Of a DNA stretch of 50,910 nucleotides, positions 1-50,910 are shown one piece after another. Numbering within the stretch: the first letter of the stretch is position 1; each line of letters begins with the position of its first letter. Position numbers and translations under genes: made by a program. This DNA comes from a virus. The notes under the pieces are model-generated. The model did not search any database. It was not told where the DNA came from and was given only the letters and a program-made list of their open reading frames with translations. The stretch lies in the IMG/VR virus record IMGVR_UViG_3300033475_000035; one strand, written 5' to 3'.

Positions 1-127
1 TGGGGTTCTTCGGGGATAGGAGCCTCTGAAGAATATTGATCTAACTCTATGCAGGGGTAATCTTCTGGATTTTGCATGTGAAGACTAAAGTCAAGATTAT
101 ATAAAGCATTAAGTAATTCTCTCTTTA
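1..127. repeat. Exact 127-bp terminal direct repeat, copy 1 (identical to 50784-50910). Circular-closure overlap of the contig.
   Basis: Compared base by base: tggggttcttcgggg...tctctcttta is identical at both ends. Confidence 0.95.
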
Positions 128-1437: not shown

Positions 1438-1461
1438 GTGATTAACCCAAGGAGACTTATT

Positions 1462-1824
1462 ATGTATACAGCGTTACTTATCGAAGATGATCCAATGCAA
1501 GCAAAAATACAGTCACACATGTTAACAGCAGCAGGCTTTGAAGTTACCCATTGCGAAAACGGCTGCAAAGGCATAGGACGTGCATTAAAATCACGTTTTG
1601 ACGTTATTGTAACTGATATTGATTTACCTGACATCCAAGGTGACTCTATTGCAAAGATATTAAGCTCATACTACAATGGCACCGTGCCTATTTATATGCT
1701 TTCAGCAAATCAAGAGCACTTTAAAGTTGGCATAGATGATCATGGCATTGCATGCAGAATGCAAAAACCATTTAATAAAACTATGGCTGCAATGATAAAA
1801 ACTCAAGTTTCAAAGAGGATATGA
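1462..1824 (+). CDS. Stand-alone CheY-like response-regulator receiver domain
   Basis: AAGGAG RBS then ATG 1462. All canonical receiver residues are present: E8-D9-D10, D52 in VIVTDIDLPD, S81 in MLSA, and K102-P103 in QKPF. Confidence 0.85.
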   Translation: MYTALLIEDDPMQAKIQSHMLTAAGFEVTHCENGCKGIGRALKSRFDVIVTDIDLPDIQGDSIAKILSSYYNGTVPIYMLSANQEHFKVGIDDHGIACRMQKPFNKTMAAMIKTQVSKRI

Positions 1825-2215: not shown

Positions 2216-2335
2216 GTCTCTTTCAAAGCTAAGGTAAAGTTGACAAGGATAATAACCCGTTGTACCATAAAATGGCTAAAACAGGGGTTGGTTAATTACC
2301 TCATCTATAACCTGCTACGTACCTTGTTTTAGCAA

Positions 2336-2713
2336 TTAATCAAACCTGATACGTCTTTTATATTTCTTGAAATACATTTCATTAAGATTATATTTATCCC
2401 AATTATCCCAAACTTGTAACTTCTTAGAATAACTATGAACGATAGCCTCTTCAAGAAGGCTGGGTCTTTTACATTTGACTTTGTCTTGCTTTATACAAGG
2501 AACTCTCCTAGAGGGAATAAATACAGATTGAACACTTCCTTGTTCCCAACTCTTAAAACTTGCCTTTAGTTCTTCCTGGACACATCTAAATTTTTTTTTA
2601 TGATCATGAAGAGCATAAATTGAGGGGGAGTCATGCCTGACAGAGGTAATAATTATGTCTTTCTTTTTAAACAAATTTTTAAAATAACTTATAAATATCT
2701 CTAGATATTTCAT
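2336..2713 (-). CDS. Hypothetical protein
   Basis: An internal ATG (MKYLEIF...) is preceded by GGAGG. The longer track ORF lacks an RBS. Confidence 0.6.
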   Translation of the reverse strand: MKYLEIFISYFKNLFKKKDIIITSVRHDSPSIYALHDHKKKFRCVQEELKASFKSWEQGSVQSVFIPSRRVPCIKQDKVKCKRPSLLEEAIVHSYSKKLQVWDNWDKYNLNEMYFKKYKRRIRFD

Positions 2714-2777: not shown

Positions 2778-3158
2778 TTAAGCATAAAATTCGTTAGAGA
2801 AATCAAATATCTCTATAGAAATACCCTCTTCATCATGAGGGTTATAAAGCTTGTAAGCGCGCATAAAGACTATCTGGCTATCATCATTGTATGCAAGTCC
2901 ATTACACGCGTCTAAAACCGCTTTTACGCAATTATCTATGTCTATCTTCCTGTTGTTTTTTAGTATGAATTTTATATCCGCTCCTATAAGCCCATTCATG
3001 GGGCTATAAAGGCCATTTTTTAACATGCAAGCCTTAACATGCCACGCTATCTCCGTTTCATATTCCTTCGTCTGTTTAGGCGTATAAACCCCCTTAGCGC
3101 CAATTCTTGGCCTTTGTTTACTCCGAATCTTTGTTTTTATATGGAGCTTAAGGTTCAT
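2778..3158 (-). CDS. rusA: RusA-family Holliday junction resolvase
   Basis: IDIDNCVKAVLDACNGLAYNDDSQIV matches the RusA D-x-D-N...K-A..D-A....D-D-x-Q-V core. Confidence 0.85.
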   Translation of the reverse strand: MNLKLHIKTKIRSKQRPRIGAKGVYTPKQTKEYETEIAWHVKACMLKNGLYSPMNGLIGADIKFILKNNRKIDIDNCVKAVLDACNGLAYNDDSQIVFMRAYKLYNPHDEEGISIEIFDFSNEFYA

Positions 3159-3367
3159 TCCGGTCTAGCTTCTAAAATCATAATGACACTTCTAAGACCA
3201 TGAATAAGTCCTTGAATAAAGTTATATTGCCTTTTAAACTCCTCATCTCCTCCCAGAGCCCGAGACATTTGTGATAGACTCTTAAGCTCTTGAAGCTTCC
3301 TATTTTGAATTTCTAGGAGTTTTTTCGCGAATTTCTCAGTAAAATCAAGATGTTCTCTATCGCCCAT
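3155..3367 (-). CDS. Hypothetical protein
   Basis: ORF with a 4-nt overlap to rusA, in an operon context. Confidence 0.6.
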   Translation of the reverse strand: MGDREHLDFTEKFAKKLLEIQNRKLQELKSLSQMSRALGGDEEFKRQYNFIQGLIHGLRSVIMILEARPE

Positions 3368-3554
3368 CTGTATTCTCCATTTTTATCCTATAAAGCTCCT
3401 GATTCCTTGATATAAACAAATCCCCATCATGCGCATGGTGTAACACTGACAATGCATTCATTATCAGTGAATTTATATCCCCCACCTTATAATGCTTTAC
3501 TAAATAATCAAGCGCTACCATCTCTTCATCAGTAAAATCTATTTCTATTTTCAT
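3357..3554 (-). CDS. Hypothetical protein
   Basis: ATG (MKIEIDFTDEEM) immediately after the hfq stop codon. Confidence 0.5.
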   Translation of the reverse strand: MKIEIDFTDEEMVALDYLVKHYKVGDINSLIMNALSVLHHAHDGDLFISRNQELYRIKMENTDGR

Positions 3555-3555
3555 A

Positions 3556-3819
3556 TTAATACCTGTACATCTCATCTTCAGAAGAGGTCAGATTGAAAAC
3601 GAGATTCTTAGGAACAATAGAAGAGATAGCAGTTTTATAAATAATCTGACTTGAAGTCGATTCAAGATTGACTAACAATATGCAGGTTCTATTAAACTCT
3701 TGAATATGCCCTGAGAGCTTGATGCCATTTACTAAATATATATTCACCTCACTTCTTCTTCTTTTAAGCTCTTTAAATAAACGATATTCGAGATGATCTT
3801 CTCTTGGTTTTTGTAACAT
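3556..3819 (-). CDS. hfq: Hfq-like Sm-fold RNA chaperone
   Basis: [25 protein letters not shown]...[13 protein letters not shown] aligns with E. coli Hfq [25 protein letters not shown]...QMVYKHAISTVVP. AAGAGGA RBS. Confidence 0.9.
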   Translation of the reverse strand: [87 protein letters not shown]

Positions 3820-3861
3820 TTTATTCCTCTTTTAGCATTTGTTTGTGTAAATAAAAATAAC

Positions 3862-4065
3862 TTATAAAAGAAAGGTCGATATAATGGACTTCTTTGGTAT
3901 TTTCCAGTATTTTTGTCCTGTTTGCGTTTCCATCAACTTCGCTCTTTTTAATCTGCCATTTTGGCATGCCATGGCTAAACATCTCGGCGTTCTTTCTACA
4001 CCATGGAAATTCAGAAAGCTTATGGCCTCTTTAATAGTAAGATAGTTTTTTTCCACTTTGATCAC
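3862..4065 (-). CDS. Excisionase/AlpA-like HTH DNA-binding protein, first gene of the leftward operon
   Basis: GTG start after GGAGGGAGG. YLTIKEAISFLN...WKIPKKSI resembles 11484-11699. Confidence 0.55.
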   Translation of the reverse strand: MIKVEKNYLTIKEAISFLNFHGVERTPRCLAMACQNGRLKRAKLMETQTGQKYWKIPKKSIISTFLL

Positions 4066-4202
4066 TAGTCCTCCCTCCTGTCATTAAATTAACCCATACA
4101 TTATGGTTCCACATATAGAAGAAGTCAAATTCTTTTTAAAAAGTTTGATTTTTTTTTAGATGTTGCTATTCTAATACCAAATCATAGGTTAAAGAGGGTG
4201 TG

Positions 4203-4775
4203 ATGGCTAATAAAAAAGGCCGGTCTTCTATTAAAGGTGAGATAGAAGCAGGAAGACCGAGCATGTTAACAAAAGAGACTCACGACAAAATAGTTTATGC
4301 GGTAGGGAAAGGTGCCACATATCTTTTAGCGGCTGAATATGCGCGCATTTCGAAGGAGACATTACGAAGGTGGAAAGCGTGGGGAGAGCAGTTTGAGAGT
4401 GAATTTATCGATGAAAAAATGGATAGCATGACCGCGGAAGAAAAAAAGACTTACCTTGAAGAAATAAGTCAGTTGGAGCGCTATAAGTACTATGCATTAT
4501 GTGTATCTCTACGCGAGGCAAGGGCTACTGATGCCTTGGCTTTATTAGATAGGATAGATGCTGCTTGTGCAGAGGCTAAAGGCTGGGGTGCTGCTGCGTG
4601 GAAATTGGAAAGGGTTCATAGCTATACTGAGAAAAGAGTTGTAGAGAGTAATATTGAGCTTAATGGCAAGGTAGCTAATTTCAATGCTGATATGACAAAT
4701 ATGACTGAAGAGCAGGCGGTTAATCTTTATAAAGATTTCTTAAATAGTCTTTCGAGTCAAGAAGGAGACTTGTGA
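4203..4775 (+). CDS. HTH protein with a terminase-small-subunit-like N-terminus (early regulator or TerS candidate)
   Basis: GRPSMLTKETHDKIVYAVGKGATYLLAAEYARISKETLRRW resembles the common GRPSKY...TIYRW TerS N-terminal HTH. It lies 12 kb from terL. Confidence 0.6.
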   Translation: MANKKGRSSIKGEIEAGRPSMLTKETHDKIVYAVGKGATYLLAAEYARISKETLRRWKAWGEQFESEFIDEKMDSMTAEEKKTYLEEISQLERYKYYALCVSLREARATDALALLDRIDAACAEAKGWGAAAWKLERVHSYTEKRVVESNIELNGKVANFNADMTNMTEEQAVNLYKDFLNSLSSQEGDL

Positions 4776-5752: not shown

Positions 5753-5968
5753 ATGCCTGGATTAGTGTTAACAAGGAGAGTAGGTGAGTCAGTTTTCATT
5801 GGAAGAAAAATAAAGGTGACAGTTATTTCTGCCGCAGGAGGTCAGGCCAAAATTCGGTTTGATGCCCCTGAGGAAGTTGAAATTCACCGAGAAGAGGTTC
5901 TAAATAGAATCTTAGGTGTGGAAGAAGACGGCGATTTCGCCAAGGATGAGCATCAGAACCATGACTAA
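5753..5968 (+). CDS. csrA: CsrA/RsmA-family translational regulator
   Basis: LVLTRRVGESVFIG..IKVTVI...IRFDAPEEVEIHREEV aligns with CsrA [22 protein letters not shown]...IGVNAPKEVSVHREEI. AGGAGG RBS. Confidence 0.9.
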   Translation: MPGLVLTRRVGESVFIGRKIKVTVISAAGGQAKIRFDAPEEVEIHREEVLNRILGVEEDGDFAKDEHQNHD

Positions 5969-12839: not shown

Positions 12840-12993
12840 TACATTAATCGAGTTACAGAATAGAATAAGAAATAGGATTTTTGAGTGGGAAGAGTCTCAT
12901 GTATTTTATACTAGTGATATAGTTCAGGGGTTGCAGGAAGCTTCTGACATAATTGATGACATGCTAAAGGAGTTAAAGAAATATGAGCGATAA
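12832..12993 (+). CDS. Small hypothetical protein (53 aa), not in the ORF track
   Basis: Manual translation is MINTLIELQNRIRNRIFEWEESHVFYTSDIVQGLQEASDIIDDMLKELKKYER. It overlaps both neighbouring genes in typical operon style and fills a gap. Confidence 0.35.
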   Translation: MINTLIELQNRIRNRIFEWEESHVFYTSDIVQGLQEASDIIDDMLKELKKYER

Positions 12994-13492
12994 TATAAGT
13001 ATTGGAAGTGAAAGGGTTAGAGCTGCTTTCAATCCAAGTGGGAATGATATGGTAACTATTCTTAAGGAACAAACAGCTGTCTTGATTGATCACTGCGAAG
13101 CGTTGAAAAGACTAGATGGTCGTCTTGCGTCTTTAGCTCAAACAGCTTATGAGGAAGCATGCATGTGGGCAGTTAAAGCAGCTACAACTCAACCAAATGG
13201 CTTCCCTGTGCGTAATCCAGATAATTTTCATATTACACAGTCTGTAGATGACCAAGATTTTCATGATGTATGGATAGATGTTACTGAGCGGTTACCAATG
13301 CCTAACCAAGTTGTGCTGGTGTTGGGTGAGAATTATGAAGGCACGCGGCCTTTTACAGCTAGATATTATGAGGTTGAGAAGCAAATAGATTGGTTCTCTA
13401 ATACCGACCGTGCTCCAATTTCCAATGTGACGCATTGGATGCCCGTTCCATCGATATCATCGCATAGGATAAGGATAAAAAAGGATGAGTGA
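12983..13492 (+). CDS. Two-domain protein: an N-terminal helical hairpin (NPSG...MWAVKA motif) plus a C-terminal DUF551-like domain
   Basis: The N-terminus is RVRAAFNPSGNDMVTILKEQTAVLIDHCE...LASLAQTAYEEACMWAVKAAT. The C-terminus is WIDVTERLP...VLVL...NVTHWMPVP. Confidence 0.7.
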   Translation: MSDNISIGSERVRAAFNPSGNDMVTILKEQTAVLIDHCEALKRLDGRLASLAQTAYEEACMWAVKAATTQPNGFPVRNPDNFHITQSVDDQDFHDVWIDVTERLPMPNQVVLVLGENYEGTRPFTARYYEVEKQIDWFSNTDRAPISNVTHWMPVPSISSHRIRIKKDE

Positions 13493-14772: not shown

Positions 14773-15396
14773 ATGACATTTGAAAAGGAATATAGAGTAA
14801 AGATTGGGGTAAGAAATAATCTTATACTGAGAAAAATTGAAGGACTTGGTTGTAAGAGCGTTAGTGAGTTTTGCAGAGTATATAATTTGAGCGCAACCCT
14901 TGTGAATTCTATTATAGCAATGACCCTCTCTCCTTTAACTTCTTCTGGATTCCCCCGCCGCATAGTGCAGGAGCTTCTTGATATATTTAATTGTGGTTTG
15001 GATGATTTATTTACTGAAAATCAAATTAATACCAAGCTTGAGCATTCCACCCGTCAAGTGGAGGTTTCTGAGACGGAAGCCGCTTATTATCTGCAGTCTC
15101 AATCATATAATATTGTTGAAAATATGCTTGAACATGAGTCTCAGGAGATAATCGATAAGCAAATTTTTGGTCATCTTGGTAGTCTGTCACCAAGAGAGCA
15201 ATTAGTAATTAAGGCTAGATTTGGACTTGATGGGAATCCTGAGCAAACCCTTGCTGAAATAGCAAAAGAACAAAGATTGAGCATGGAAAGAATTAGGGGT
15301 ATTGAAGCTAGAGCATTAAGAAAGCTGAGATGGAGGTTTTGTAGAGAGAGTGGCTTAGTGCATCACCCTTGGGGTAGATTTACAACATCTTATTAA
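14773..15396 (+). CDS. Sigma-70 region-4 domain protein with an N-terminal HTH. No recognisable region 2.
   Basis: LSPREQLVIKARFGLDGNPEQTLAEIAKEQRLSMERIRGIEARALRKLR matches sigma-70 region 4 (LTPREEKVLRMRFGI....TLEEVG..F.VTRERIRQIEAKALRKLR). Confidence 0.8.
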   Translation: MTFEKEYRVKIGVRNNLILRKIEGLGCKSVSEFCRVYNLSATLVNSIIAMTLSPLTSSGFPRRIVQELLDIFNCGLDDLFTENQINTKLEHSTRQVEVSETEAAYYLQSQSYNIVENMLEHESQEIIDKQIFGHLGSLSPREQLVIKARFGLDGNPEQTLAEIAKEQRLSMERIRGIEARALRKLRWRFCRESGLVHHPWGRFTTSY

Positions 15397-16668: not shown

Positions 16669-16755
16669 ATCATTCACCTATCCTCCTTTTAACGTTTGGC
16701 CTATATTGATTCAATACTGAATTATTGATAGCCTCGGTTGATAACTGAGGCGTCT

Positions 16756-18285
16756 ATGAAACCAGCACCAATCACTTTAGATATATCGAACAAAATAAAA
16801 CGCATTAATTTTATTAACGAGAGCCCCTTGAATGCTCGAGCGGCATCGATTTTCTATTCTAGAAATCCCATCAACTTTATTAACGACTTTTGCATGACTT
16901 ATGACCCTAGGCAAAAAACAAAGGTCATGCCATTTCTTTTATACCCAAGACAGCGTGAATATATCCAATGGCTACATGATAAATATGTTACCAAGCAAGA
17001 TGGGTGTGTACTTAAGTGTCGTGATGTTGGCGCCTCATGGCTGAACTGTGCATTTGCTGTTTGGATGTGGTTATTCGTAGAAAACTCCACCATTACTTTC
17101 ATCTCTAGGAAAGAAGATTATGTCGATAAGATTGGGGACCTACGCTCCATCCTGGAGAAATGTCGATTTATTATTTCTAACCTTCCTCCTTTTTTCATGC
17201 CGGCTGAGAAAAATAAGTTAATTCGTCATCACTTGAAATTTAAATTGTTAATAAATCCAAAAAATGGCTCTTCAATAGTAGGCGAGTCAGGCGATGAAGC
17301 GGGCCGTGGTGGTCGTTCAACATTAATATTTGGCGATGAATTTGCCTTCATTCCTAGGGATGAAAAAGTAGAGGCAGCAATATCCCAAAACTCTGATGTC
17401 AAAATATATGTCTCAACACCAAATGGCTGCAGAGGAGTTTTTTACAATAAGATAGACAAGGGTGTTGTTGATGTATTTTATTTCAAATGGCATCAAGACC
17501 CGCGTAAAACACCGGAATGGTACGATGAGCAAAAGCGCAAACTAGATCCAGTAATATTTGCACAAGAGATAGAGGGCGATTTCTTTGCTTCTACTGACAT
17601 GATTTGCATTCCCCGCAAATATATTGAGGCAGCAATTAATTTCAAATTAGCAAAAACCGGTAAGAAAATTGCTGGCCTTGATGTGGCGGATGAGGGGGGT
17701 GATAAGAACGCACTCGTTATCCGTCACGGGTATGTGGTGGAGTCTATAACCGCATGGGAGCATGGCGATACCACAATGACAGCCAGGCGCGCAAGTGTTT
17801 CAGCGTCCGCATCTAGCGTGGATATTATAAATTATGATAGCGTTGGTGTGGGAGCTGGCGTCAAAGGCGAATTTAATTCTCTGAAGAAGAACGGGCAGTT
17901 GAAGATAGCTGTAAATGGGGTGAATACCGGTCAGCCTCCCACCAACAGGCGATATGAAAATACCGATAAATTGAATTCCGAGATGTTTCTTAATCTGAAA
18001 GCAGAGCTTTGGTGGAAATCTCGTCGCAGATTTGAAAAAACATACGAAAAAGTTAACGGCATTAAGGATTGGCCAGATGATGAGCTTATTAGCATTCCTG
18101 ATGATAAAGAGCTTATTACCGAGCTTTGTCAGCTGAAGTACGATTTTGAAGATGACGGAAGAATTAGAATCGAGTCTAAGAAGCAAATGGCAAGCCGAGG
18201 GATAAAATCTCCAAACAAAGCCGACGCGTTCATGTTGGCATTTTCATGGGCAGAAGAAAGAGGTGTTCGAGCTAGAGCATTATGA
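16756..18285 (+). CDS. terL: Terminase large subunit
   Basis: 515-aa class ORF upstream of the portal gene. Walker-like LKCRDVGASW and STLIFGDEFAF, plus a C-terminal nuclease-like half. TTG 16738 is an alternative start. Confidence 0.9.
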   Translation: MKPAPITLDISNKIKRINFINESPLNARAASIFYSRNPINFINDFCMTYDPRQKTKVMPFLLYPRQREYIQWLHDKYVTKQDGCVLKCRDVGASWLNCAFAVWMWLFVENSTITFISRKEDYVDKIGDLRSILEKCRFIISNLPPFFMPAEKNKLIRHHLKFKLLINPKNGSSIVGESGDEAGRGGRSTLIFGDEFAFIPRDEKVEAAISQNSDVKIYVSTPNGCRGVFYNKIDKGVVDVFYFKWHQDPRKTPEWYDEQKRKLDPVIFAQEIEGDFFASTDMICIPRKYIEAAINFKLAKTGKKIAGLDVADEGGDKNALVIRHGYVVESITAWEHGDTTMTARRASVSASASSVDIINYDSVGVGAGVKGEFNSLKKNGQLKIAVNGVNTGQPPTNRRYENTDKLNSEMFLNLKAELWWKSRRRFEKTYEKVNGIKDWPDDELISIPDDKELITELCQLKYDFEDDGRIRIESKKQMASRGIKSPNKADAFMLAFSWAEERGVRARAL

Positions 18286-46806: not shown

Positions 46807-46834
46807 TTGACCATAAAATATGTGATGGTATAAT
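46807..46834 (+). promoter_or_regulatory. Near-consensus sigma-70 promoter with an extended -10 and no downstream plus-strand ORF
   Basis: TTGACC (46807-46812), 16-nt spacer, TGG-TATAAT (46826-46834). Confidence 0.65.
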
Positions 46835-46840
46835 ACAAAT

Positions 46841-46917
46841 GCGCGTGGCGGAATGCTACTCAAAAACCCTACGGAGTGGTAGTTCGAAGAACTGCTTTAC
46901 ATATAAGCGCCGCCACA
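46841..46917 (+). ncRNA. Candidate small structured RNA with a tRNA-like cloverleaf (not a canonical tRNA)
   Basis: 7-bp closing stem GTGGCGG/CCGCCAC (46845-51 / 46910-16) and a 2-nt linker. Three hairpins follow: 46854-81, 46882-92 and 46893-909. The last has a 5-bp stem and 7-nt loop abutting the 3' strand. The G-U pairs only work on the plus strand. Confidence 0.45.
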
Positions 46918-46927
46918 AGCATTCTTC

Positions 46928-47279: not shown

Positions 47280-47319
47280 AAAAAAAGCCCGTAGAGCTTT
47301 TTAAGGCAATACGGGCTTT
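47280..47319 (-). terminator. Rho-independent terminator (minus strand)
   Basis: On the minus strand, AAAGCCCGTA, 16-nt loop, TACGGGCTTT, followed by a T7 run. Confidence 0.7.
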
Positions 47320-47409
47320 GTGTACCAGCAGCAAAAGATTATAGCGAGAGAATCTCTTACATAAAGCCAGTACGGATCTGACAGCTTAAGTATACCAAAT
47401 TTCGGTAAT

Positions 47410-48084
47410 TTATCCACATACTTCGTCAGTTCCCCCTCTTATCGGCTCTGCAATCATCCCAAATGGCCTGAGTCCATATAATTTTTCAGGGAGATAAAAG
47501 TGGTGATCAAGATAAACTTCATTGTAGTATGAGCCAGGTTCTACAGCTTCTACAGGAACTCTTATCGTTGTAGATCTAATGATGTTCGCTATGGGTTTGT
47601 GAAGCTTGCACATTCCATCATAGTAGCGGTGATCTGAAGGACTATGACTAAAAGTTAATCCACTATTAGTGTGGTGAGTAGGCTTAGCAATTTTTCCATT
47701 TAAACAGGAATACCCTCGCATATCTTCAATATATACCTCGGAATCCATCGTAAAGAAATAATTATAGGTCAGATAGTCATAGTAAAGAATAAAACTATTT
47801 CTATCATTAATCTGATTAATAGAGCTTAATACCTTACTGCTAACAGCAAATGGTGTTATGGTTTTGGTCGATATATATTGCCTTCCAAGCTCATCAGTAA
47901 ATATAGTTCCAGCCTCGACTGGAGCAGCTTTATGGCCTATATTATGAGTATCTCCCGATACAATAATATGGCCTGTCGCCTTTTTACCAGGAACACACTG
48001 ACTGCTTGCATAGACTACTGAGTAACTGAGAAGAAGCAGAATTAAAAAGCACGTGCATATCATTATTGTTCTTTGTGTTTGCAT
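47410..48084 (-). CDS. Secreted protein with a cleavable signal peptide (moron candidate)
   Basis: N-terminus MQTQRTIMICTCFLILLLLSYSVVYA-SSQ. AAGGAG RBS. Has its own terminator. Confidence 0.7.
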   Translation of the reverse strand: MQTQRTIMICTCFLILLLLSYSVVYASSQCVPGKKATGHIIVSGDTHNIGHKAAPVEAGTIFTDELGRQYISTKTITPFAVSSKVLSSINQINDRNSFILYYDYLTYNYFFTMDSEVYIEDMRGYSCLNGKIAKPTHHTNSGLTFSHSPSDHRYYDGMCKLHKPIANIIRSTTIRVPVEAVEPGSYYNEVYLDHHFYLPEKLYGLRPFGMIAEPIRGGTDEVCG

Positions 48085-48108
48085 AGTTATCTCCTTTTAT
48101 TAATATAC

Positions 48109-48597
48109 TTATTTGTTTGCTAGCTTGTTATCTTTTTTTATTTTCTCTACAGTATAGTTATCACGGCTTGGATCTGAATCAGATATAAAATAATTTAAAA
48201 TACAGCAATATATCCTATTGTTAAGAACTGGGATTGCTTTTTGATTGGAATCATAGCAGCACAAAAATATCTTTATTACCATGCTAACATCACTTCCAGA
48301 TTGGGCAGGTACTATACTGCATTTGGCTAAATGCGTCTTTAATCTAAAATTAAGATATTGGTCTAACCTTCTTTCTATGAACCGCCTTTTTTCGATCAGA
48401 AACAACTCATGCGGATCTCGAGTAAATACATCTCGGTCCATCTGAATAATACGACAAGTTTCTGTAATGACCTCTGGGTCACGTAGAATATCTATCTCTC
48501 TCTCGAAAACATTAACCCAATGGAATATCGAATCAAGGAAGTAATTATAGTCATTAATTGCTTGTGAATAGACTTTCTTCAAGAATAGTGTATGCAT
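48109..48597 (-). CDS. Hypothetical protein
   Basis: AGGAG RBS. 162 aa. Confidence 0.65.
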   Translation of the reverse strand: MHTLFLKKVYSQAINDYNYFLDSIFHWVNVFEREIDILRDPEVITETCRIIQMDRDVFTRDPHELFLIEKRRFIERRLDQYLNFRLKTHLAKCSIVPAQSGSDVSMVIKIFLCCYDSNQKAIPVLNNRIYCCILNYFISDSDPSRDNYTVEKIKKDNKLANK

Positions 48598-48618
48598 AAT
48601 ATCTTTATCTCCTAAGAA

Positions 48619-48644
48619 AGCCGCTAGGGAGATAGCTAGCGGCT
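48619..48644 (-). terminator. 9-bp hairpin between the ATPase gene and the downstream gene (attenuator or terminator candidate)
   Basis: AGCCGCTAG ggagatag CTAGCGGCT. Confidence 0.4.
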
Positions 48645-48687
48645 AATAACACCTATAAATGCTATCAATAAAATAATATAATATATA

Positions 48688-49857
48688 TTATATGTTGGCA
48701 ACATTATTTTTTATTTTAAATGCATCAGATGCATTAACCGTTCCACTTAATATGCAATCATAAATCCCTTGTAGATGTTGCACGTCATTATCGTCAAACT
48801 CATCCTGCTTTTTACGTTTAAAGTAAGACACAATGTCATTCTCTTTTATTCCGTATTTAACATAGAGATTAGATATGATATCTTGCTGACCTAAAGGTTT
48901 TTCTTCCTTTTTAACCGATGTTTCGATAGTTATCGGGTCTGAATAAACCTTTAATTCCTTGTCAAAAACAAGGCCAATTCCTTTAGCCCTGTCTCTTATT
49001 AATAACCCCGCTCTATTTTTGGAATCCCATATATTTTCTTCTGAATTAACTAATGTAACAAACTCATTAGCTTCTTTAGCATTTTTAACTAAAGATGCTT
49101 TAAGAGAGTAATCTGACACTAACTGATTATATTTTTTCATCTGCTCAGCTCTTTCTTTTATAGCATCCTCATATTTGCTAAAGATAGTTTCTAAAAGATT
49201 ATTATCTGTTTTATTCTCTGCGTTAACAACATGTATTACTTCTTCTATAGAACACGTATTTTTTCCATAATATCTTTCGCAGGGATCAAAACTAATCGTT
49301 CTCTTCTTTCCATGTGCTTCCATATATCCAACTAAGTCTAATTCCTTGATCAAATCAACAGAGCTAGAGCCTCCAATTTCTGGCCTAAGCACTCGATTAT
49401 CTCCTTCTTTCTCTTCTTTCTCATGTGCAACAAACACAATGTGCTTGCCTAATAACGAGATGGTAGATATAAATCGAGAAAACATCGTTTTTCTAGCGCC
49501 ATATCCTTGTAGAGATAAGCTCCCATCTCTTTTGCCATTTTTAGGGTCTGACTTTATCAGATAGTCACTCATGTGATCTAACATCTTGCCAGCTGTATCA
49601 ATTACTAGTGTCTTATATAACCGAGGGTTTTCCTGAAGATGCTTAACGACATCACAAACCTCAGACCAGCTTTTGACTTGTACTGTGTCATGAAGATGTT
49701 GTTGTTTAACACGATGCGCACCCTTATCAAAATCCAATAAGAGACAATCAGGAGCGGAAAGGGCAAGAGTCGTCTTGCCAATACCGGGTTGTCCATAGAC
49801 AAGCATTCTTATAGTAGTAACCGGCTCAATTTCATGAGGTTTTTTAATTAATTGCAT
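48688..49857 (-). CDS. AAA_24 / Sak4-like RecA-fold ATPase with a long C-terminal extension
   Basis: IRMLVYGQPGIGKTTLALSAP..LLLDFDKGAHRV and TLVIDTAGKM. Confidence 0.8.
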   Translation of the reverse strand: MQLIKKPHEIEPVTTIRMLVYGQPGIGKTTLALSAPDCLLLDFDKGAHRVKQQHLHDTVQVKSWSEVCDVVKHLQENPRLYKTLVIDTAGKMLDHMSDYLIKSDPKNGKRDGSLSLQGYGARKTMFSRFISTISLLGKHIVFVAHEKEEKEGDNRVLRPEIGGSSSVDLIKELDLVGYMEAHGKKRTISFDPCERYYGKNTCSIEEVIHVVNAENKTDNNLLETIFSKYEDAIKERAEQMKKYNQLVSDYSLKASLVKNAKEANEFVTLVNSEENIWDSKNRAGLLIRDRAKGIGLVFDKELKVYSDPITIETSVKKEEKPLGQQDIISNLYVKYGIKENDIVSYFKRKKQDEFDDNDVQHLQGIYDCILSGTVNASDAFKIKNNVANI

Positions 49858-50191
49858 GATCTGTCTCCATTAGTGTTTGTTCGTTAAATTCATCAGTTAT
49901 GATGTCATCAAAATAATTAATGAATATGTTAATAAAAGATGTTCCTAGATAAATACTCGCTCCAACGAAACCCTCTGAACTGCAATCCGTAAAGAACTCT
50001 ATTATAGATTCCTTTAAAAAGCCTTTTTTATCTGCTTGTTTCAAAAGATTATAAAACATATCACCAGAGCCATCATCTACAATGTCTTCAATAATATAGC
50101 CAACTAGAGTTAGTTTCTGCTCTTTAGTTAAAGATTTTATATTGCAGATACCATTTTTAGTTAATTCACTGATTGCAGTCGTTAGTTTCAT
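49844..50191 (-). CDS. Hypothetical protein
   Basis: AGGAGG RBS. Overlaps the start of the ATPase gene. Confidence 0.6.
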   Translation of the reverse strand: MKLTTAISELTKNGICNIKSLTKEQKLTLVGYIIEDIVDDGSGDMFYNLLKQADKKGFLKESIIEFFTDCSSEGFVGASIYLGTSFINIFINYFDDIITDEFNEQTLMETDHAIN

Positions 50192-50261
50192 AGTTTCCTC
50201 CTTTTTGTGGTATTTTATTATTATTTACAAAATAAACTATGTCAAATAATCAAAATTAATA

Positions 50262-50570
50262 TTACATTGGGATGAAAATATATTTAATACTCTCTTCCCC
50301 ATAACCATTTATTATGATGTGTTTCTTAATTTTACCGATAGTTTTCCCACCAATATCAGTTAGCAATATATCTGTACACGCTGAGGGATCTTCTGCAATC
50401 TCACTACTGGCAATTAATTCTGATGACTCAGAAATGGCATCAAATAACTCACGCCTGATTCTATTTTGCTCGACATCAATCCTAGCCTTTTGTTCGTTCA
50501 TCAACTTATAGAAGGCCACTTTATCAGATAGATTACTATCAAGAGATAGTGTTAGAGAGGTAGTTTTCAT
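50262..50570 (-). CDS. Hypothetical protein
   Basis: ATGA-type overlap with the upstream gene. Confidence 0.6.
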   Translation of the reverse strand: MKTTSLTLSLDSNLSDKVAFYKLMNEQKARIDVEQNRIRRELFDAISESSELIASSEIAEDPSACTDILLTDIGGKTIGKIKKHIIINGYGEESIKYIFIPM

Positions 50571-50910
50571 TATCTAATTTCCTGGGCGCCAATTTTAGAT
50601 AAAGCATTGTTAATAACTGAAAGCCCAAAAAATTCCTTTTCATCGTCGTCCCAGCCAACAACGGTATTCCTTAAATCATTAATAGTTTTAATACCTTTAT
50701 GAGCAAGGGATTTCTTCATGCCTTCTGGTATATCCAATAGTGAGATAGAAGTAAATAAATCTTCCTCATAATCATCTTTTACCTGGGGTTCTTCGGGGAT
50801 AGGAGCCTCTGAAGAATATTGATCTAACTCTATGCAGGGGTAATCTTCTGGATTTTGCATGTGAAGACTAAAGTCAAGATTATATAAAGCATTAAGTAAT
50901 TCTCTCTTTA
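50570..50910 (-). CDS. 3' part of the junction-spanning gene (true start at 290 after circularisation; 167 aa in total). Carries an alpha-CTD-like HhH C-terminus.
   Basis: ISLLDIPEGMKKSLAHKGIKTINDLRNT. The frame stays open to the window end and continues in 1-290. Confidence 0.7.
   Translation of the reverse strand, partial: KRELLNALYNLDFSLHMQNPEDYPCIELDQYSSEAPIPEEPQVKDDYEEDLFTSISLLDIPEGMKKSLAHKGIKTINDLRNTVVGWDDDEKEFFGLSVINNALSKIGAQEIR
50784..50910. repeat. Exact 127-bp terminal direct repeat, copy 2
   Basis: Identical to 1-127. Confidence 0.95.

Follow-up and report, generated by a model that had tools for sequence, protein, structure and literature searches.

Background

Hfq is the central hub of small RNA (sRNA) regulation in many bacteria, and VpdS of phage VP882 is reportedly an example of a phage-encoded sRNA that depends on it. 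We analysed a case in which a virus appears to carry the chaperone itself: an hfq-like gene at positions 3556-3819, on the minus strand, of IMG/VR virus record IMGVR_UViG_3300033475_000035, a stretch of 50,910 nucleotides (nt) that we refer to as the window. The gene is almost certainly a phage-encoded member of the Hfq (bacterial Sm-like) family, and its product departs from the cellular proteins mainly in the pocket where these hold the 3' ends of sRNAs.

In the well-studied bacterial proteins this uridine pocket is built from neighbouring subunits; Phe42 stacks on the uracil, Gln8 reads the uracil O2 and His57 contacts the free 3'-hydroxyl of sRNA tails, with Lys56 belonging to the same uridine and 3'-hydroxyl pocket and Tyr25 to the A-site (PMC5379935). 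The closest described cases of Hfq outside a chromosome are found on plasmids. Plasmid pQBR103 carries both an Hfq homologue, pQBR0137, and the CsrA-type protein RsmQ, just as the phage described here carries homologues of both types, and the concept of a mobile-element homologue of a global RNA-binding regulator that acts on the host regulon comes from the same work (PMC9928087). Hfq3 of the Bacillus anthracis plasmid pXO1 is another copy on a mobile element (PMC7843513), and an Hfq-like gene is present on Thermococcus plasmids (PMC3543421). All three differ from the present gene in that they sit on plasmids and not on a virus, and their sequences are related to that of the phage protein only at the level of the family. 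On the phage side, the Sm-fold proteins of actinobacteriophages (Adephagia gp39, and the "Hfq-like domain" proteins of Tonenili and Phabba) are truly phage-encoded, with a likeness at the level of the fold (PMC11373665; BFVD).

A tblastn search of 50,697 GenBank phage records gave four matches, all of them canonical Salmonella or Acinetobacter Hfqs on evidently bacterial DNA, and no true phage Hfq was found in these records. The BFVD library of predicted viral protein structures likewise held no Hfq, only distant Sm-like proteins less than 25% identical, and our literature search found no paper on a phage-encoded Hfq. The gene represents a known family in variant form, in surroundings that are very seldom met with and, it appears, have not been described.

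A phage genome that encodes an Hfq-family protein

The two ends of the window (1-127 and 50784-50910) form an exact direct repeat of 127 bp, the usual signature of a circularly closed assembly, which leaves a unique length of 50,783 bp. It encodes a large terminase (TerL), portal, head protease, major capsid protein, tail sheath, tape measure, lysozyme, a Sak4-like annealing protein and RusA. Given the terminal overlap and the structural and lysis genes, the window is a complete genome of a myovirus-type phage, of about 50.8 kb and 37% GC. No nucleotide similarity to GenBank phages or to PLSDB plasmids was detected for the window, nor any transfer RNA (tRNA) gene within it; the relatives of TerL are metagenomic and at most 66% identical (one match is a Chloroflexota metagenome-assembled genome, MAG), and for the capsid protein the relatives in IMG/VR do not exceed 40% identity.

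An identical Hfq protein, flanked by the same genes, is also encoded on contigs of two further JGI metagenomes and on one contig of 50,763 bp, and the two short contigs among these match the window with 100% identity at the DNA level. As the same neighbourhood occurs in independent assemblies, the linkage of hfq to the phage is not an assembly artefact. Third-position GC content (GC3) and codon adaptation index of the gene, 0.307 and 0.677, lie at the phage means (0.307 and 0.682), as would be expected of a settled resident and not of a recent capture. Contamination or a chimera could accordingly be ruled out, on the grounds of the phage-like composition, the junctions common to independent assemblies and the tightly packed operon. 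The claim of an earlier reading of this DNA (hereafter the original prediction) that the gene is phage-encoded is therefore well founded: the closed genome contains TerL, portal, capsid, sheath, tape measure and lysozyme genes, and the neighbourhood has been assembled again in two metagenomes.

The gene itself is an intact open reading frame (ORF) of 87 codons, with its ATG at 3819, a TAA stop at 3558-3556 and, by direct reading of the minus strand, a Shine-Dalgarno sequence AGAGGA at 3825-3830, 5 nt 5' of the ATG. Its product matches the Pfam Hfq profile PF17209 with 56.2 bits (E 2.7e-15; gathering score 27), over protein residues 16-73 and profile positions 7-62 of 64. This is a significant profile match, far beyond chance, and it upholds the proposed family. 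The protein also matched 35 distinct Hfq sequences with solved structures (best E 2e-12), the only other match among such sequences being a weak one to a designed protein. A eukaryotic or archaeal Sm/Lsm identity was considered and rejected, as Hfq models alone were matched, and no second copy of Hfq was found in the 50,910-nt window.

The predicted structure agrees. An AlphaFold2 (AF2) model built from 56 aligned homologues has a mean predicted local distance difference test score (pLDDT) of 83 and shows the order of the Sm fold, an N-terminal helix (α1, residues 10-20) followed by five strands (β1-β5 at 24-29, 34-42, 46-50, 57-61 and 65-70). In a Foldseek comparison with the PDB, each of the top 50 matches is an Hfq, the target-normalised template modelling (TM) scores being 0.84-0.97 and the root-mean-square deviations (rmsd) mostly 0.6-1.0 Å; for the crystal structures of the E. 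coli, Salmonella and Pseudomonas proteins these values are 0.9-0.96 and 0.6-1.0 Å.

Compared with these canonical proteins (PDB 1HK9, 2YLC, 1U1S, 4V2S), the phage protein has the same PF17209 domain and fold (rmsd 0.6-1.0 Å over about 65 residues), 45-51% identity, an identical IYLVNGIKL Sm1 segment, the distal A-R-N residues, K56, Y55 and a basic rim; over bacterial Hfq cores in general the identity is 45-54%. It differs by the substitutions Q8E, F42T, H57T, D40N, Q41R and K47V, by a three-residue insertion and by the lack of a long disordered C-terminal domain, and also by its location in a phage operon instead of miaA-hfq-hflX and by scores below the NCBIfam equivalog cut-offs. The motifs that the original prediction quoted for the Sm1 and Sm2 core were recovered, YK.AIS..VP among them, and the N-terminus and the short C-terminus indeed diverge from canonical Hfq, the latter finishing in the acidic SSEDEM. 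The original prediction made no mention of the insertion, N51-L52-E53 in the β3-β4 loop. Neither of the two NCBIfam Hfq equivalog models (NF001602, TIGR02383) is matched above its cut-off (64.2 against 95; 52.9 against 61.7).

Remodelling of the uridine pocket

Alignment to E. coli Hfq is gap-free over residues 7-47, and HMMER and MAFFT agree on it; positions are given below in E. coli numbering unless the phage residue is stated. In the proximal pocket a single residue of four is retained: Q8, F42 and H57 correspond to E11, T45 and T63 of the phage protein, while K56 is kept as K62. Two other proximal positions are changed (D40N and Q41R) and Y55 is kept. The Sm2 motif YKHAIS consequently reads YKTAIS, the same at five of its six residues, with threonine for H57. 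The distal A-R-N site is left almost intact: Y28, N31, G32, I33, K34, L35 and Q58 are identical to E. coli Y25, N28, G29, I30, K31, L32 and Q52, and the changes at this site, T61S (S67) and Q33S, are conservative, S33 being found in the nearest subfamily as well. On the rim, K19-R20-R21-R22 stands for E. coli R16-R17-E18-R19, a more basic patch in which E18 is replaced by arginine.

Comparison with 109 representative Hfqs gave the same picture. Where at least 85% of them agree on a residue, the phage protein differs at no more than six positions (Q8, L12, S23, D40, H57 and T61); a further departure is that at position 42, where 85% of these representatives have F or Y. Every distal residue conserved in at least 85% of them is kept, T61S aside (Y25, N28, G29, I30, K31, L32, Q52). 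Conserved positions are changed more often in the proximal face (4 of 6) than elsewhere (3 of 22; Fisher test, p = 0.02, post hoc). In a set of 220 representatives, position 57 is histidine in 213 and threonine in none, and loss of Q8 is associated with loss of the aromatic residue at 42 (odds ratio 16, p = 8e-9, phylogeny not corrected for). None of the 220 that has residues aligned at Q8, F42 and H57 has all three changed; one protein, P0059, has E42 and Q57, with position 8 aligned to a gap. Judged from these alignments, the changes are concentrated on one face of the protein and the three losses tend to co-occur.

The residues singled out beforehand for verification thus gave a divided answer, K56, the arginine patch and the distal face being present, and Q8, F42 and H57 being replaced by E11, T45 and T63. 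The absence of RNA-binding face residues, which the original prediction had set against its own proposal, holds for the proximal face but not for the distal face or the rim.

Cellular relatives

A HMMER search of 1.84 billion cluster representatives returned 927 relatives, none above about 54% identity over the core, and among these representative proteins the phage Hfq is a singleton at 50% identity. In a scan of one genome per bacterial species, the best 80 matches listed were 41-53% identical; they were canonical Hfqs of Gamma- and Betaproteobacteria, none of which had the KLSG signature. By sequence, the phage protein is an orphan within the Hfq family.

Two rare features, S at position 33 (in the KLSG signature) and the three-residue β3-β4 insertion, are nevertheless common to one subfamily, with the consensus YLINGIKLSG...L[KR]D[NS]KST. 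The members of this subfamily (P0009, P0018, P0059, P0157, P0159 and others) resemble the phage protein in S33, in the loop insertion, in their short length and in the frequent loss of the aromatic residue at 42, and the GC content of the DNA that encodes them, 33-34%, is close to the 37% of the phage. Unlike the phage protein, they are evidently the cells' own chromosomal Hfqs: in the three contigs looked up, of 33-34% GC, the gene order is hfq-hflX-hflK-hflC, and two of these loci have der upstream. Q8, D40, H57 and T61 are kept by nearly all members of the subfamily, whose identity to the phage protein is 38-50%. Where NCBI names are present, they refer to uncultured Neisseriaceae, Burkholderiales or "Pseudomonadota". 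It is plausible, as a weak inference from sequence, that this lineage of low-GC proteobacterial MAGs provided the donor or the host.

Hfqs with threonine at position 57 are scarce. A pattern scan for them found two in JGI metagenomes (L109, 1026-1241, plus strand; L110, 1988-2215, minus strand), both with E8 and R42, and none in IMG/VR. One of the two sits in a canonical miaA-hfq-hflX locus of 56% GC, the other in a 164-kb contig of 29% GC beside an ankyrin-repeat gene. The same residue has been introduced into Pseudomonas aeruginosa Hfq. The H57T and H57A mutants (PDB 3INZ, 3M4G) form multi-chain rings, and H57T is the natural residue of the phage protein; they differ from it as engineered single mutants of a canonical Hfq, with Q8 and F42 intact. 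As the crystal entry of the H57T mutant contains six chains, threonine at 57 is compatible with a ring.

Similar genes on other viral contigs

Pattern scans of 2.9 million IMG/VR contigs found 10, then 21 Hfq-like loci. Some of these loci may be host DNA, as they encode canonical Hfqs whose type is that of Acinetobacter, clostridia or alphaproteobacteria. The others are short and divergent and have phage surroundings: a large terminase lies within 5 kb of the Hfq-like gene in one (L006/L115), a phage clamp loader is near it in two (L010/L125 and L009/L124), a lysozyme gene together with a terminase-sized ORF in another (L122) and an integrase gene in a further one (L008/L123). At least two of Q8, F42 and H57 are replaced in 6 of 8 of the Hfq-like proteins on viral contigs, with Y/F25, G29, I/V30 and K31 kept. 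These proteins are 31-43% identical to the phage protein, and no other genes are common to their contigs and the window except a distant lysozyme, so that by sequence they would be separate acquisitions or the result of a very old divergence. There may be a recurrent class of viral Hfqs from which the uridine pocket has been lost.

Possible mode of action

We favour, with about as much doubt as confidence, a mechanism read from the pattern of conserved and changed residues, in which a ring of the phage protein acts on A-rich sites in messenger RNAs (mRNAs) independently of sRNA 3' tails, beside the CsrA homologue of the phage. The protein would assemble into the usual six-membered ring, as the conserved β4 and β5 interface strands and the six-chain entry of the H57T mutant suggest. 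Its distal face would bind single-stranded A-rich (ARN-type) RNA and its basic rim the RNA backbone. The proximal pocket is remodelled by Q8E, F42T and H57T together with D40N and Q41R, so that the protein probably acts on the mRNA side, mainly on messages of the host or of the phage. Occupancy of A-rich sites near ribosome-binding sites could lead to direct repression or to remodelling, and host Hfq could be out-competed for such sites. Stabilisation and presentation of sRNAs in the manner of host Hfq would be unlikely. Together with the CsrA homologue, which would recognise GGA motifs, the phage would have two simple-motif handles on host translation. The original proposal that the phage copy competes with host Hfq for sRNAs or replaces it is to be modified in this respect, replacement at the U-rich 3' tails of sRNAs being less likely with three of the four pocket residues changed, and an equivalent competitor for sRNAs being doubtful.

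Several points weigh against a specialised protein of this kind. K56 and Y55 are kept, which would allow some residual U binding, and the changes are not confined to the pocket: K47 of the rim is V50 in the phage protein, and N13 and S38 of the lateral pocket are K and E. The enrichment of changes in the proximal face was tested post hoc and involves few positions. Some chromosomal Hfqs of the nearest subfamily have S or T at position 42 while seemingly being the sole Hfq at the usual hfq-hflX locus, so that a non-aromatic residue at 42 does not by itself abolish Hfq function. That the host has an Hfq of its own is an assumption. Finally, ARN motifs are more numerous in the phage genome than in shuffled sequences (49 against 35; 54 against 24), an excess that is explained by coding bias, and no target was thereby identified.

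Some of these points would suit an ordinary Hfq that tops up a limiting host pool, or that serves phage sRNAs in a host whose Hfq looks similar, which we regard as unlikely. In its favour, conservation extends over both Sm cores (Sm1 and Sm2), K56 and Y55, and over the distal face and the rim; the nearest, YLINGIKLSG subfamily is chromosomal (hfq-hflX-hflKC) and tolerates S, T or E at 42; a T57 Hfq occupies a canonical miaA-hfq-hflX locus; and the plasmid-borne Hfq3 of pXO1 has been reported to be functional in E. coli (PMC7843513). Such a role is harder to reconcile with the combination of changes, as changes at Q8, F42 and H57 are combined in no fully aligned protein among the 220 representatives, where T57 does not occur at all, and with the scores below both NCBIfam equivalog cut-offs. 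Q8E moreover places a negative charge where the uracil O2 is read (PMC5379935), and the candidate phage RNAs described below are devoid of terminator U-tails. The losses could also serve an attack on host Hfq from within. The interface strands, QIIYK and AISSIVP, are near-identical to those of bacterial Hfq while the pocket residues are changed, so that phage subunits might co-assemble with host monomers through β4 and β5, cripple the uridine pockets and turn host sRNA regulation off. Since each pocket is shared between neighbouring subunits (PMC5379935), the harm done by a small number of defective subunits would spread to several sites, and mimicry of regulators by this phage extends to CsrA, to a receiver-only response regulator and to a protein with sigma-70 region 4. 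We nevertheless think such poisoning quite improbable: no bacterial Hfq is more than about 54% identical, mixing may be blocked by the insertion in the loop and by the different N-terminal helix, and a pure poison would need neither an intact distal face nor a reinforced rim.

More doubtful still is a role unrelated to RNA, either as a DNA- or nucleoid-binding factor working with the recombination genes or as a captured host gene drifting toward loss. One may cite for it RusA in the same operon and the Sak4-like annealing gene located elsewhere (48688-49857, minus strand), solved structures in which the core of E. coli Hfq binds double-stranded DNA (PDB 5UK7; PMC7144919), and the substitutions D40N, H57T and T61S, at otherwise invariant positions, which could mean relaxed constraint. 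A decaying or repurposed gene does not sit well with an intact ORF, a good Shine-Dalgarno sequence, tight coupling to its neighbours and a phage-adapted composition; the losses are grouped on one face instead of being scattered, neither the hydrophobic core nor the two remaining faces have been lost, and several unrelated phages keep similarly patterned genes.

A natural Hfq with two RNA-binding surfaces kept and the third lost, as we read the phage protein, is a ready-made separation-of-function variant. It could reveal what the distal face and the rim do alone, and also whether phages interfere with host riboregulation at the level of the chaperone. That unrelated viral contigs encode pockets degenerate in a similar way suggests a solution reached more than once and not an accident. 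Should the protein prove to work as an ordinary Hfq, no more than a rare accessory gene would be left of the finding. One might speculate further, with rather little confidence, that Hfq rings without a uridine pocket recur among viruses as a class so far undescribed, and that they act as anti-Hfq by seizing A-rich mRNA sites or by poisoning host rings; host sRNA regulation, including the responses that restrain phages, would then be turned off, and the CsrA homologue would take over the messages controlled through GGA.

Candidate RNAs

The original prediction also suggested that the protein serves the phage's own candidate RNAs, at 46841-46917 and 2275-2333. We found no link between them and Hfq. 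The first, which we delimit at 46838-46925 (plus strand), is an 88-nt, cloverleaf-like element with three hairpins in a long closing stem (-31.4 kcal/mol, z = -4.1); it is preceded by a promoter-like TTGACC-16-TATAAT, the two together spanning 46808-46925, and gave no tRNA call with ARAGORN and no Rfam match. The second, at 2272-2340 (plus strand), is one long hairpin with a 12-bp closing stem (z = -3.0) and no family match, with TTGACA-17-TACCAT upstream; promoter-like site and hairpin span 2240-2340. A terminator U-tail is the usual mark of Hfq-dependent sRNAs, and a terminator hairpin followed by such a tail is absent from both candidates; the pocket by which these tails are recognised is in turn lost from the phage Hfq. 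In the minus-strand reading, AUUUUAU comes after the 2272-2340 hairpin, which stands directly behind orf149 at the end of the hfq operon; this hairpin may be the terminator of the leftward operon rather than an sRNA. Across the whole window, Rfam searches at gathering and at permissive thresholds found no sRNA family and no CsrB/RsmZ-like decoy. The proposed service to these two RNAs, which are structured hairpins without a U-tail terminator or an Rfam match, thus found no support.

One further Rfam match, to PK-repBA at 47285-47383 (plus strand), is below threshold (24.3 bits against a gathering score of 45) and probably due to chance; the stretch is intergenic and lies ahead of the leftward gene block 47410-50570.

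The hfq operon

The phage gene lies in a tightly packed leftward operon with the order orf67, hfq, orf65, orf70, rusA, orf149, divergent from a long rightward operon that starts at 4200. Its neighbours are thus orf67, orf65, orf70 and RusA, and not the miaA/der upstream and hflX-hflK-hflC downstream of a housekeeping Hfq. A consensus scan gave a sigma-70-like promoter, TTGACT-17-CATAAT, at 4100-4128 (minus strand; 10 of 12 matches), which is a candidate only, the total of promoter-like sites in the region being no higher than in shuffled sequences.

All genes of the operon are on the minus strand. The first, orf67 (3862-4065), has 67 codons and a GTG start with GGAGGGAGGA ahead of it, a strong Shine-Dalgarno sequence; the public gene call is instead a 53-residue ORF at 3821-3982 that overlaps orf67 and lacks a Shine-Dalgarno sequence. 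The confident single-sequence AF2 model of orf67 (pLDDT 83; order β-H-H-β-β-H) gave non-significant Foldseek matches to winged helices of PadR, MarR and Fur type (E > 0.1, TM < 0.5), and orf67 has no Pfam match and no PDB sequence match; its fold, as modelled, is possibly a winged helix. From the stop codon of orf67 to the ATG of hfq there is a 42-nt spacer, with AGAGGA inside. The ATG of orf65 (3357-3554; 65 codons; no Pfam or PHROG match) lies 1 nt past the hfq stop codon, a spacing that suggests translational coupling. Next comes orf70 (3155-3367; no family match), which overlaps both orf65 and rusA by a few bases, and then rusA (2778-3158), for a RusA-type Holliday junction resolvase (Pfam RusA 72.5 bits; PHROG 140). 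The last gene, orf149 (2336-2785; no family match), is followed by the 2333-2275 hairpin and AUUUUAU. The gene had been placed in a leftward operon between an Xis-like gene and rusA: the leftward operon is as described, with nothing to show that it is early, but the Xis-like character of orf67 found no support in family, PDB and fold searches, which were negative or non-significant, and two small ORFs separate hfq from rusA.

Other regulatory genes of the phage

The CsrA/RsmA homologue is encoded in the divergent rightward operon, at 5753-5968 (plus strand; 71 residues; Pfam CsrA 68.6 bits). CsrA homologues are also present in 90 GenBank phage records (Pseudomonas, Vibrio and other phages). 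By sequence homology, the phage carries counterparts of both major bacterial post-transcriptional regulators, Hfq and CsrA. Two further look-alikes of host regulators are a receiver-only response regulator at 1438-1824 (plus strand; Pfam Response_reg 54 bits) and a sigma-70 region 4 protein at 14773-15396 (plus strand; 50.5 bits).

The ORF at 4200-4775 (plus strand), with which the rightward operon starts, has phrog_4102 as its sole match, annotated as small terminase subunit (E 2.5e-16); it has no IMG/VR relatives and sits 12 kb upstream of the large terminase gene (16738-18285). Further along the same strand, the 169-residue product of 12983-13492 has precomputed Pfam matches to Acb2_Tad1_hairpin and DUF551, which suggests a sponge-like protein directed against the CBASS and Thoeris defence systems.

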